The notes: generated by a model not told the origin, from the sequence alone. A stretch of DNA of 64,000 nucleotides from Candidatus Poribacteria bacterium (GCA_963665845.2 OY762492.1:2240001-2304000), one strand, 5' to 3'; counted from the stretch's first letter, positions 53,738 through 56,401 are shown. Numbers and translations: made by a program.

Positions 53738-56401
53738 ATGGCTGTGAACAAAACATTCGATGCCTTTAGAAAGCAGGCGCTGGGAGAAGCCCGCGACGCC
53801 GATCTTGTGGAGCGGTGGGAAGAAATCGCCCTGCTGGCGCAGCTTCGCCAAAAAAACAAAGGCAAGGACAAGCATGTTTTTCATGACATACCCCGCCCGC
53901 CGCGGAACGAACTGAACCCGCTTCACTTGAGCGTCCGCATGCGCAAGGACATCTATCTGAAAGCGGCCGCGCTGATGGGGTTCAATGTTGCGTACTCGCC
54001 CAGCTGGGACCTGTTTGACGGCGGGGTTGAAAAGGAGGCGCTGCGCGATGAGAACGCCGCCGGGCGCCCGTTCGACTCTGACCTGGTGCGCGGCAGCTGC
54101 AAGCAAAGCGCTCAGGAGCGCATGGAGACCGAACGCGCCGCGCTGAAACAGCTGGGCGTATTCGCCGACTGGCGCGGAGTCAAACCGCATTTAGAAGCGC
54201 GCTACGAAGCGAAACTGCTCGACAGCTTCGGGCGTCTCATGACCGCTGGGCTTGTCAAGCGGGAGCTGAAACCCGGCTACTGGTGCATAGAGTGCAGAAC
54301 CGACTTGAGCGAGACGGAGCAGGCGGTTCGCAAACGCAAATCGACCGGCGCGTATATCCGCTTTCCGCTTCGCGCAGGGCTGGAACGGCTCGGCGCGAAC
54401 GCCGGCGTCGCCGCGCGCGTCTTTGAGCTGTGGACGATGCCGGCGGGCGCGGCGCTAGCGTTGTCTCCCGACGCGTCGTACGAGGCGGTACGGTTCAACG
54501 GCAAACCGCTTGTCATCGAAAAAGGAAGCGTCGACAAACTCCCGGCAGACAGCGAGATGGAGCGGCTCGAAACGATTGAAACGGCGGAGCTGCTGCAGTG
54601 CGTCTGCAGCCATCCGCTGTTGGACGCCGATCTGCCGATCGTCATGCGCGGGGAGGAAGAAGGCGCGTTTGTTCTGGTCAGCCGAAGCGGAAAAGAACGC
54701 CCCTTCCCGCAACAGCTGTTCCTCGCCTCCGAAGCGGATCCGTTCGGCGGACATACGCCGCGACTCGCTTACAACTACCGCATCGGCTCCATCATGAACG
54801 AAAGCGGCGAGATGACCGAAGAGGCGGAAACGTTCTGCGGGCTGTCGATACAGGAGGCGCGCGAGCATATCGCCCTTCGGCTCGATTACATGGGCATGCT
54901 CATCCGGGCGGACGACGGCGAACTTGCCTACCCGCACTGCTGGACATGCGAGGAGCCGGCGGCGTTTCGTCCGATTGACCAGTGGACGTTCGACGCCTCG
55001 GCGAGCGGGCTGCTGCGGCGCGTCGTTCAGGGGATGGAGCTGTTTGAGGGGCGTCCGTCCGGCTTGAAGGCGCAGTTGAAAAAGCGGCTCCCGCGGCAGG
55101 AGCGGTGGGAGGCGTCGCAGCCGGGGGTGTGGGGTTTGCCGGTTCCGGCGTTTTACTGCCGAAAATGCGGCGGTCAGCTGGAGGTGGAGCGCAGCGTCAA
55201 GACAGCGCGCGACCTCATCAGCCATAAAGGAACCGACGCATGGTTCTCCGTTGAGCCGGACGACGCGCTGCCGAACGACGCCGTTTGCCCGAGCTGCGGC
55301 GAGCGCGAGTTTCGGCGCGACACCAGCGTCATGACGCCATGGACGGCGTCGCTTCTGGACGCGATACAGAACATGGACAGCCGGCGCGAAAACGCCAAGA
55401 TCGGCGACATCTTTATGGAGCGGGCGGACGACGCGCTGGACTGGATCGCGCGGCTGCTCACGCTGCTTTACGCGCTAAGAGGCGGCTGCCCGACGAAGTT
55501 TTTACATTACATCAACCTTAAAAAAACCGGGGCGCAACTGAAGGCGCTCGCCGATCCCAAACTGATGCGCATCCTGGAGCAGCCCGGCGGATCGGACCTG
55601 CTCCGCCTCTTTGCGCTTCGGCATACCTTTAGTACGAAGACGTCGGCTGAAGACGCGGCGGCGCGTTTAGAGGAGCAGAGGGCGGAGTTTGAAAATGTTC
55701 TGCTGCGCGCCGCCTTTTTGACGCGGAAGCAGAAAACGCCTCCCAAAGGGAACGCCAACATCGGATCGATTCCGTATCTGCCGGCGCTGTTTGCCGCATG
55801 GTTTCACGGGGCGAAGGGGGAGATCGAGAGCGCGTTTCAGGCGTACGATTTTGACGCGGCATGGGAAACGCTGCGCTCGGCGCTGCGCCGATTTGAAACG
55901 ATGGCAGATTATCTGGAAAAGGCGCAAAAGCGCGCGCCCAAAAGCAAGCGCGCCGACCTTCCGCTGATCGAACGCGCGTATTACGAATGCGCCCTTCAGC
56001 TGCTGAAACTGACGACCCCGTTTCTGCCGATGACCGCCGAGCGGCTCTGGACGCGCGCCTTCCGCGCGCCGGACGGCGCCAGCGTTTTTCTCTCCAACGC
56101 CCTGCGCGGCTCCCAAAACTGGAAACGCGGAAAGAAACGAATCGATCCGCCCGGCAGCTTTGAGATCTGGGCGGACGCGGCGCGCGCCGTTCAACATGCC
56201 TCCAGCGGCGGCGTTGACATCGTTTTTCAAAACGACGCTGCAGAATGGCGAAAAATGTTTATCGAGTCGGAGGAATGCCTGCGCATGTTCGCCGAAGGCG
56301 GTTTCGCCGTATGGACAGACGAGCCGCCTCCCGAAGACGGCGCGCCCGTCCCAACAGTGAGCGTCAGCAGCCTGAACGCAGAAGCGGACAGCGATGCATA
56401 A
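53738..56401 (+). CDS. Isoleucyl-tRNA synthetase paralogue with degenerate catalytic motifs
   Basis: IleRS scaffold (LGVFADW, YPHCWTC, WGLPVPAFYC, CPSCG, PFLPMTAERLW) in divIVA-X-lspA synteny. HIGH and KMSKS are not recognisable. Confidence 0.8.
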   Translation: MAVNKTFDAFRKQALGEARDADLVERWEEIALLAQLRQKNKGKDKHVFHDIPRPPRNELNPLHLSVRMRKDIYLKAAALMGFNVAYSPSWDLFDGGVEKEALRDENAAGRPFDSDLVRGSCKQSAQERMETERAALKQLGVFADWRGVKPHLEARYEAKLLDSFGRLMTAGLVKRELKPGYWCIECRTDLSETEQAVRKRKSTGAYIRFPLRAGLERLGANAGVAARVFELWTMPAGAALALSPDASYEAVRFNGKPLVIEKGSVDKLPADSEMERLETIETAELLQCVCSHPLLDADLPIVMRGEEEGAFVLVSRSGKERPFPQQLFLASEADPFGGHTPRLAYNYRIGSIMNESGEMTEEAETFCGLSIQEAREHIALRLDYMGMLIRADDGELAYPHCWTCEEPAAFRPIDQWTFDASASGLLRRVVQGMELFEGRPSGLKAQLKKRLPRQERWEASQPGVWGLPVPAFYCRKCGGQLEVERSVKTARDLISHKGTDAWFSVEPDDALPNDAVCPSCGEREFRRDTSVMTPWTASLLDAIQNMDSRRENAKIGDIFMERADDALDWIARLLTLLYALRGGCPTKFLHYINLKKTGAQLKALADPKLMRILEQPGGSDLLRLFALRHTFSTKTSAEDAAARLEEQRAEFENVLLRAAFLTRKQKTPPKGNANIGSIPYLPALFAAWFHGAKGEIESAFQAYDFDAAWETLRSALRRFETMADYLEKAQKRAPKSKRADLPLIERAYYECALQLLKLTTPFLPMTAERLWTRAFRAPDGASVFLSNALRGSQNWKRGKKRIDPPGSFEIWADAARAVQHASSGGVDIVFQNDAAEWRKMFIESEECLRMFAEGGFAVWTDEPPPEDGAPVPTVSVSSLNAEADSDA

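Follow-up and report, generated by a model that had tools for sequence, protein, structure and literature searches.

In a 64,000-nucleotide stretch of a Candidatus Poribacteria genome (GCA_963665845.2, OY762492.1:2240001-2304000; hereafter the window), we found that the gene directly upstream of lspA encodes a type-1 isoleucyl-tRNA synthetase (IleRS1) that is stripped of every synthetic and editing motif. Since an intact type-2 enzyme (IleRS2) is encoded elsewhere in the genome, the motif loss is shared by orthologues, and the gene is under purifying selection, this dead IleRS very probably serves a selected, non-catalytic function. As for what that function is, a plausible but tentative reading, suggested by charge and ancestry, is an anticodon-independent adaptor that would grip RNA through its basic CP3 zinc knuckle. 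The gene and the parts of its product are as follows, in window coordinates.

53738..56401, +, dead type-1 IleRS (P0001), 887 residues, from a single uninterrupted frame, alignment, domains and model
53882..53926, +, erased HIGH loop, residues 49-63
54002..54031, +, erased GWDxHG amino-acid pocket motif, residues 89-98
54284..54295, +, CxxC 183-186, one half of the zinc site retained in the CP core
54377..54394, +, GxExxG loop, residues 214-219, in the former editing domain; family-specific and invariant
54938..54949, +, CxxC 401-404, the other half of the retained zinc site
55103..55336, +, end of the CP core and CP3 zinc knuckle, residues 456-533 (CxxC 474, 517), the most constrained part
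55187..55249, +, CP3 helix 484-504, which acquired basic charge and Arg491
55337..55573, +, second Rossmann half, with DVWFDSG, EGxDQxRGWF and KMSKS erased
55646..56107, +, anticodon-binding helical bundle, fold kept and basic RNT helix lost

A type-1 IleRS without catalytic motifs and its intact counterpart

Over its full length, the 887-residue protein aligned with IleRS1 enzymes of known structure (best E 2e-58), and its motif replacements could be followed column by column against the P. megaterium and S. aureus enzymes and one intact IleRS1 from the homologue search. An initial annotation, made from the sequence alone, had described the product as a full-length but apparently inactive IleRS, and the alignment confirmed each loss on which it relied: HDGPPYANGxxHxGH and GTGxVH are gone, GWDCHGLPIE has become SWDLFDGGVE, WTTTPWT RVFELWT, WCISRQR WEASQPG, DVWFDSG TPWTASL, and EGxDQxRGWF ERADDALDWI, while KMSKS is missing. 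The protein thus has neither the HXGH, KMSKS, GWDxHG, DVWFDSG and DQxRGW of an active IleRS1 nor the Thr-rich peptide, GTGxVH and catalytic Asp of its editing site, and the adenylation motifs that LeuRS-I-type paralogues keep are likewise absent. Pfam detected tRNA-synt_1 and Anticodon_1 alone, in agreement with the claimed absence of a C-terminal zinc finger, and the TIGR00392 (ileS) score of 226 bits fell short of the curated cut-off of 621. Far slighter alterations of HXGH suffice to abolish the activity of IleRS1 (PMC10485003), and a survey of 379 IleRS reports HXGH in all IleRS1. Some databases label such proteins isoleucyl-tRNA synthetase, which is likely wrong.

As also described earlier, the reading frame is uninterrupted over 53738-56401 (+), overlaps lspA (by 8 bases), and encodes a protein in which CxxC occurs four times in all, at residues 183, 401, 474 and 517; by comparison with the IleRS family, CxxC 183-186 would pair with CxxC 401-404. 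The claim of a retained anticodon-binding helical domain held for the fold, which Pfam detected at E 4.7e-7 and whose helices the model shows, but not for the basic RKIRNT.R helix, which is gone. Structure prediction, which had been proposed as a check, was performed with AlphaFold2 on a 27-row alignment (predicted local distance difference test score 85), and the model has the class Ia fold predicted for an IleRS1 descendant, with CP1, CP2, CP3 and the helical bundle. Its six best Foldseek matches were all IleRS1 structures (template modelling scores of about 0.65-0.7); the ESM Atlas returned generic class Ia clusters and nothing more specific. The protein resembles the bacterial IleRS1 of P. 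megaterium (8c9e/8c9f), S. aureus (1ffy/1qu2) and H. pylori (8wnf) in fold, domain order, CP zinc cysteines and place 5' of lspA; unlike them, it lacks HIGH, KMSKS, pocket, editing motifs, anticodon helix and C-terminal zinc finger, and has gained the GxExxG loop and a basic CP3 helix.

An assembly artefact or sequencing error was ruled out, as a contig of one unlabelled sequencing run, possibly the source sample, is identical to 51639-58500, and relatives at 84-90% as well as an orthologue of another species at 87% show the same losses.

Searched with PF00133, the source genome (G000) gave eight matches, among them an 897-residue ValRS-type protein and an intact 1050-residue IleRS2 at G000:C1:1570416-1573568 (L002:1441-4593), which carries GVHH, GWDTHG, WTTTPWT, GTGIVH, DAWFDSG, DQTRGWF and KMSKS. 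The genome also has tRNA-Ile(GAT), three CAT tRNAs and TilS. The dead gene was thereby ruled out as the sole ileS, and the expectation that a second ileS encodes the working enzyme was upheld, in that IleRS2, to judge from its motifs, likely charges tRNA-Ile; erased motifs beside a working-type paralogue are the pattern of a pseudoenzyme. Across the 176 genomes of the phylum, IleRS2 is present in 163, and the synthetic motifs were found in all 35 IleRS2 sequences displayed (33 genomes), three of which read KMSKT. GXHH is a natural active variant of IleRS2 tied to mupirocin hyper-resistance, and the same change kills IleRS1 (PMC10485003); the GVHH of the G000 enzyme is of this kind. In family f6 and genus g14, IleRS2 is longer (1120-1190 residues) and 39-40% identical, possibly a separate acquisition.

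Distribution and selection in Poribacteria

Homologues at 87% and 44% bear the source name Candidatus Poribacteria, and a profile of 27 dead copies matched 155 of the 176 phylum genomes at E values up to 1e-60 (119 of the 133 of good quality). Two genomes below this threshold, G063 and G010, hold partial copies at contig ends next to lspA. Motifs were inspected in copies from 60 of the 155 genomes, with frames of 735-1011 residues from stop to stop, and none retains HxGH, GWDxHG, GTGxVH, WFDSG, DQxxGW or KMSKS, so that the motif loss is shared by the orthologues inspected; the lone GPP match (G024) lies at residue 741, outside the HIGH loop. In the 20 larger loci fetched for synteny, lspA lies directly 3' of the dead IleRS in all 20, the position expected of an IleRS1 descendant, proC lies 5' in 19, and a DivIVA gene was detected in seven.

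Furthermore, a FastTree phylogeny of 181 sequences, rooted on five IleRS2 and excluding proteins below 680 residues, placed the 42 Poribacteria-type dead proteins in a single clade within IleRS1 with support of 1.0, a value that long branches may inflate. The dead proteins grouped with IleRS1 rather than IleRS2, and the best sequence matches of the window protein were likewise IleRS1. Because the dead copies form one clade, inactivation is likely to be older than the divergence of the phylum's two classes. In the other class, which is represented by a full-length copy in G061 and partial copies in G062 and G063, the RNT anticodon helix and the C-terminal zinc finger are retained; among the 60 inspected genomes, G061 is the one with both.

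Purifying selection on the gene, another earlier expectation, was borne out by ratios of nonsynonymous to synonymous substitution rates (dN/dS) of 0.09-0.38 for 17 genome pairs by a counting method, with bootstrap upper limits of 0.12-0.39 for 11 pairs that share no genome. Between G000 and G001 the ratio was 0.23 for the dead IleRS, 0.17 for IleRS2, 0.18 for proC, 0.10 for lspA and 0.30 for yggS, and in three g5 pairs it was 0.09-0.11 for the dead IleRS versus 0.10-0.14 for IleRS2. The constraint is thus real and usually weaker than that on the IleRS2 enzyme, and the gene shows the upkeep that distinguishes a maintained pseudoenzyme. The single clade, the fixed position before lspA and the low dN/dS therefore speak strongly against neutral decay of this copy.

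The constraint is unevenly distributed. With domain limits set from the alignment with solved enzymes, the relative dN was 0.46 for CP3 and its zinc site (Zn2), 0.63 for the first Rossmann half, 1.52 for the anticodon bundle and 1.56 for CP2. We also compared columns between 34 dead representatives (8 close relatives of the 42 were dropped) and 45 motif-intact IleRS1 drawn at random from 80. CP3 was the sole segment better conserved than in active enzymes (ratio 1.18). The columns lost are catalytic, pocket, editing and anticodon residues, and those kept are mostly Trp, Pro and Gly core positions, together with the four CxxC pairs, which are near-invariant among the dead copies.

If the protein were still a ligase whose site had been rebuilt, this might account for the persisting constraint on the first Rossmann half; however, the former catalytic columns vary freely across the dead family without new conserved residues in their place, which makes this extremely improbable. 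Retention of a trans-editing activity, in which CP1 would still hydrolyse mischarged tRNA, is also very hard to sustain. CP1 does match its active counterparts in conservation (ratio 0.97), and 47% of the 34 sequences still have Asp in the editing column, but the Thr-rich motif is lost (0-6% at the Thr columns), the window copy lacks the Asp as well, Thr and Asp are the pair mutated to disable editing (bioRxiv 2022.02.09.479832), and the editing motifs of IleRS2 are intact.

Gained residues and candidate functions

The dead family has acquired residues of its own. GxExxG is present in 60 of 60 inspected dead-copy genomes versus 0 of 112 motif-intact IleRS1 (residues 180-290), and the gained columns include G214, E216 and G219 (each 100%), R155, R491, P412, F142 and F525. 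Charge has moved as well: the mean charge of helix 484-504 is +3.1 in dead and -1.4 in active proteins, reaching at least +1 in 32 of 34 dead versus 5 of 45 active sequences, and segment 148-160 stands at +1 or more in 24 of 34 versus 0 of 45. The anticodon helix, the CP core and the KMSKS loop lost 2-3 charge units each.

These changes suggest the following course. The ancestral Poribacteria IleRS1 lost its catalytic motifs, likely after IleRS2 had taken over tRNA-Ile charging, an arrival that may have permitted the loss of catalysis. Decay may have proceeded in two steps, catalysis first and anticodon reading later, as suggested by the other class, which keeps the RNT helix and zinc finger and whose G061 copy is without the basic CP3 patch. 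The protein presumably still folds around two zinc sites. In the weaker steps of the scheme, the basic CP3 helix, Arg155, Arg491 and the GxExxG loop might make one putative binding surface, and its ligand could be RNA, such as rRNA, the leader of an mRNA or the body of a tRNA.

Several observations weigh against a selected RNA-binding role. The CP3 helix of the window copy itself carries a charge of only +1, the whole protein is no more basic than active enzymes (-1.8 vs -1.1 per 100 residues), the helix was chosen from about 76 scanned windows, and the charge counts are not independent because the sequences are kin. An acidic protein would suit a basic patch just as well, and the gained residues may be merely stabilising changes. 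In four family-f8 pairs, dN/dS of the dead IleRS exceeded that of IleRS2, being 3-5 times as high, and the copies have diverged widely within the phylum (20-25% identity). Family f2 (0 of 11) and genus g10 (0 of 4) gave no profile match, and in G089 a 185-residue, internally deleted remnant (L279:1946-2500) lies between yggT and lspA. Given these gene-free loci and the remnant, the dead IleRS is dispensable in some lineages and not needed by lspA.

In all five loss genomes inspected, from two lineages, proC-yggT-lspA stands without the dead IleRS, a clean deletion; the proC-lspA gap is about 0.4-0.9 kb and holds a small membrane-protein gene, with one extra small open reading frame (ORF) in g10. 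Each of these genomes has four long PF00133 frames, one of them IleRS2. The G089 remnant joins N- and C-terminal parts, in a region with ambiguous bases, and represents a loss in progress. In G002, whose genome is 64% complete, the orthologue (L015, G002:C9:104007-106440) is split into two frames near residue 80, either an error or early decay.

Such losses raise the question of slow decay, in which the protein has no real job and the open frame serves transcription or translational coupling to lspA or avoids a misfolded product. The 8-base overlap, the clean and partial deletions in several lineages, the shortening to about 710-790 residues in some families, and the two-frame copy in G002 would fit. 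We nevertheless regard it as quite unlikely, and it is largely refuted by dN/dS values that lie far below 1 and vary by domain: deletion is evidently possible, yet 155 of 176 genomes retain the gene, and new invariant residues arose, whereas a constraint on the open frame would not conserve amino acids.

The initial annotation had further suggested tRNA binding, scaffolding or regulation as the role. Of these, canonical tRNA-Ile binding via the anticodon domain found little support, as few parts of the protein are under less constraint than the anticodon bundle, and its basic helix is lost. This bears on the alternative that the protein, like LeuRS-I or halobacterial LeuRS2, binds tRNA-Ile specifically or senses its uncharged form, docking it in the usual way. 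The full domain layout is retained, the LeuRS paralogues keep tRNA affinity (PMC9437257), and the helix and finger kept in the full-length copy of G061 and the partial copies of G062 and G063 may reflect a first retained job of this kind. However, both elements are absent from the main class, the C-terminal zinc finger is reported to be essential for N34 reading in bacterial IleRS (PMC11685878), the bundle is among the fastest-changing parts, and the lost residues and charge argue at the sequence level against anticodon reading. We therefore consider this binder unlikely, though less so than slow decay.

The strongest competitor of the RNA adaptor, possible though more doubtful than the adaptor itself, is a scaffold or regulatory subunit in the manner of HisZ or SLIMP, bound to a protein partner via CP3, the GxExxG loop and the first Rossmann half. 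Conservation has moved to non-catalytic segments, the canonical tRNA-contact segments are less basic, HisZ and SLIMP are precedents (PMC9437257), and KMSKS-less IleRS1 of another lineage is fused to a Glu/Leu/Phe/Val dehydrogenase in 4 of 17 scanned proteins. On the other hand, neither of the two candidate partners tried was co-lost: TilS occurs in 164 of 176 genomes, in loss (11 of 11 f2, 4 of 4 g10) and keeper genomes alike, and the dehydrogenase family (PF02812), found in 160 of 176, is present where the dead IleRS was lost, yet was not found in G000 or G001. DivIVA was detected beside the gene in a minority of the loci, and the amino-acid pocket that an allosteric sensor needs is gone. A homodimer prediction for residues 42-535 scored 0.00 with its controls not folded, and so counts neither for nor against a homodimer.

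Comparison with known systems helps to place the RNA-adaptor proposal. HisZ and SLIMP are also dead synthetase paralogues under selection, but they are class II folds with known protein partners (PMC9437257), whereas the dead IleRS is class Ia; most dead synthetase paralogues to which a job has been assigned belong to class II. The LeuRS-I of Sulfolobaceae and the LeuRS2 of Halobacteria are, like the dead IleRS, full-length class Ia duplicates with little or no charging, kept for an unknown job, but LeuRS-I still makes adenylate and both bind their tRNA (PMC9437257), whereas the bacterial dead IleRS is without adenylation and anticodon-reading elements. SbzA, which acts in SB-203207 synthesis, is likewise IleRS-derived and works outside translation, but is an active secondary-metabolism transferase rather than a full-length dead copy at a housekeeping locus (PMC9437257). 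The IleRS duplicates given in the accessible parts of that review are IleRS2 and SbzA, with no dead IleRS among them. Literature searches on the IleRS of Poribacteria and on IleRS pseudoenzymes gave no paper, related listings contained no such report by title or opening of the abstract, and the accessible part of PMC13752280 does not mention Poribacteria; the family is thus unpublished as far as the searched literature goes. A full-length class Ia pseudoenzyme under selection across two classes amounts to a natural knock-out of catalysis, whose conserved parts mark the non-charging job, and its evolutionary path is traceable because intermediate states exist (the zinc finger kept in one class, deletions elsewhere).

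Other lineages and the gene neighbourhood

A profile search, of which the best 150 representatives (148 new ids) were considered and 20 proteins looked up by name, extended these observations beyond Poribacteria. In several representatives outside the Poribacteria clade, KMSKS is absent and the HIGH loop altered, with more of the pocket kept; the named sources are Armatimonadota (2), Bacillota, Candidatus Wallbacteria and, via a cluster member, Myxococcales, and these proteins branch apart from the Poribacteria clade in the FastTree phylogeny. KMSKS is lost or altered, and HIGH often altered, on several branches (P0094, P0098, P0101, P0104, P0115, P0119, P0135, P0138, P0140-P0142, P0157, P0165, P0170 and P0184). 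Four KMSKS-less proteins of 1266-1469 residues (P0102, P0137, P0171 and P0223; P0137 is from Candidatus Wallbacteria) carry the C-terminal Glu/Leu/Phe/Val dehydrogenase mentioned above, possibly a HisZ-like fusion of sensor and enzyme. In a search of named genomes for dead relatives of Armatimonadota P0101, the 80 loci retained were matches at 34-53%, and the readable ones had near-intact motifs.

Coexistence of IleRS1 and IleRS2 has been called unique to Bacillaceae, bar a mupirocin producer (bioRxiv 10.1101/2022.02.09.479832). In Bacillaceae, as in Poribacteria, both types occur in one genome, but both enzymes are active and IleRS1 is the housekeeping one (bioRxiv 10.1101/2022.02.09.479832), whereas the Poribacteria IleRS1 is dead. 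Of five genomes searched outside Poribacteria, one, from Armatimonadota (G177: L291, L295), encodes both an intact IleRS1 and an IleRS2 of the GVHH type, and is thus a case of coexistence outside Bacillaceae. The dead IleRS is also relevant to the question why IleRS1 has persisted in the presence of IleRS2. It is conceivable, although we hold it rather doubtful, that IleRS1 is a recurring source of non-catalytic proteins kept after IleRS2 takeover, with an RNA-binding factor built on the CP3 knuckle in Poribacteria and independent cases in Armatimonadota, Wallbacteria, Myxococcales and Bacillota; if true, recurrent dead IleRS1 would suggest that ordinary IleRS1, too, has a second job that has escaped notice.

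The genes around the dead IleRS in the window are as follows; yggS (51637..52371), like yggT above, is a name that we have presumed.

51637..52371, +, yggS-like pyridoxal-phosphate-binding protein, 5' in the cluster (PF01168)
52401..53177, +, proC, pyrroline-5-carboxylate reductase (PF14748 and PF03807)
53174..53728, +, DivIVA-domain protein gene (PF05103)
56394..56924, +, lspA, lipoprotein signal peptidase, whose start overlaps the dead IleRS stop
56921..57388, +, small protein without a Pfam family, 3' of lspA, conserved in relatives

The small protein follows lspA in 19 of 20 loci and is kept also in genomes without the dead IleRS. Contigs from two RNA runs of one study, from a relative at about 90%, span parts of the dead IleRS gene; 57526-58027 is uncovered, which carries no weight. 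The contigs lend weak support to its expression, as DNA can occur in such runs; because the runs gave contigs only, level, strand and ends of the transcript cannot be read from them. A promoter and terminator scan stayed at chance level (2 vs 1.2 expected; 17 vs 10.5).

In G000, ARAGORN reported an unusually long tRNA-Thr (96 nt, G000:C1:30544-30639) and tRNA-Gly (90 nt, 721371-721460), plus a tRNA-Sec (523705-523800). Highly repeated palindromic elements of very high read depth occupy about 51500-51750 and 58400-59550 of the window, and the second group flanks a 102-residue ORF at 58872-59180, which we take to resemble a GIY-YIG nuclease.

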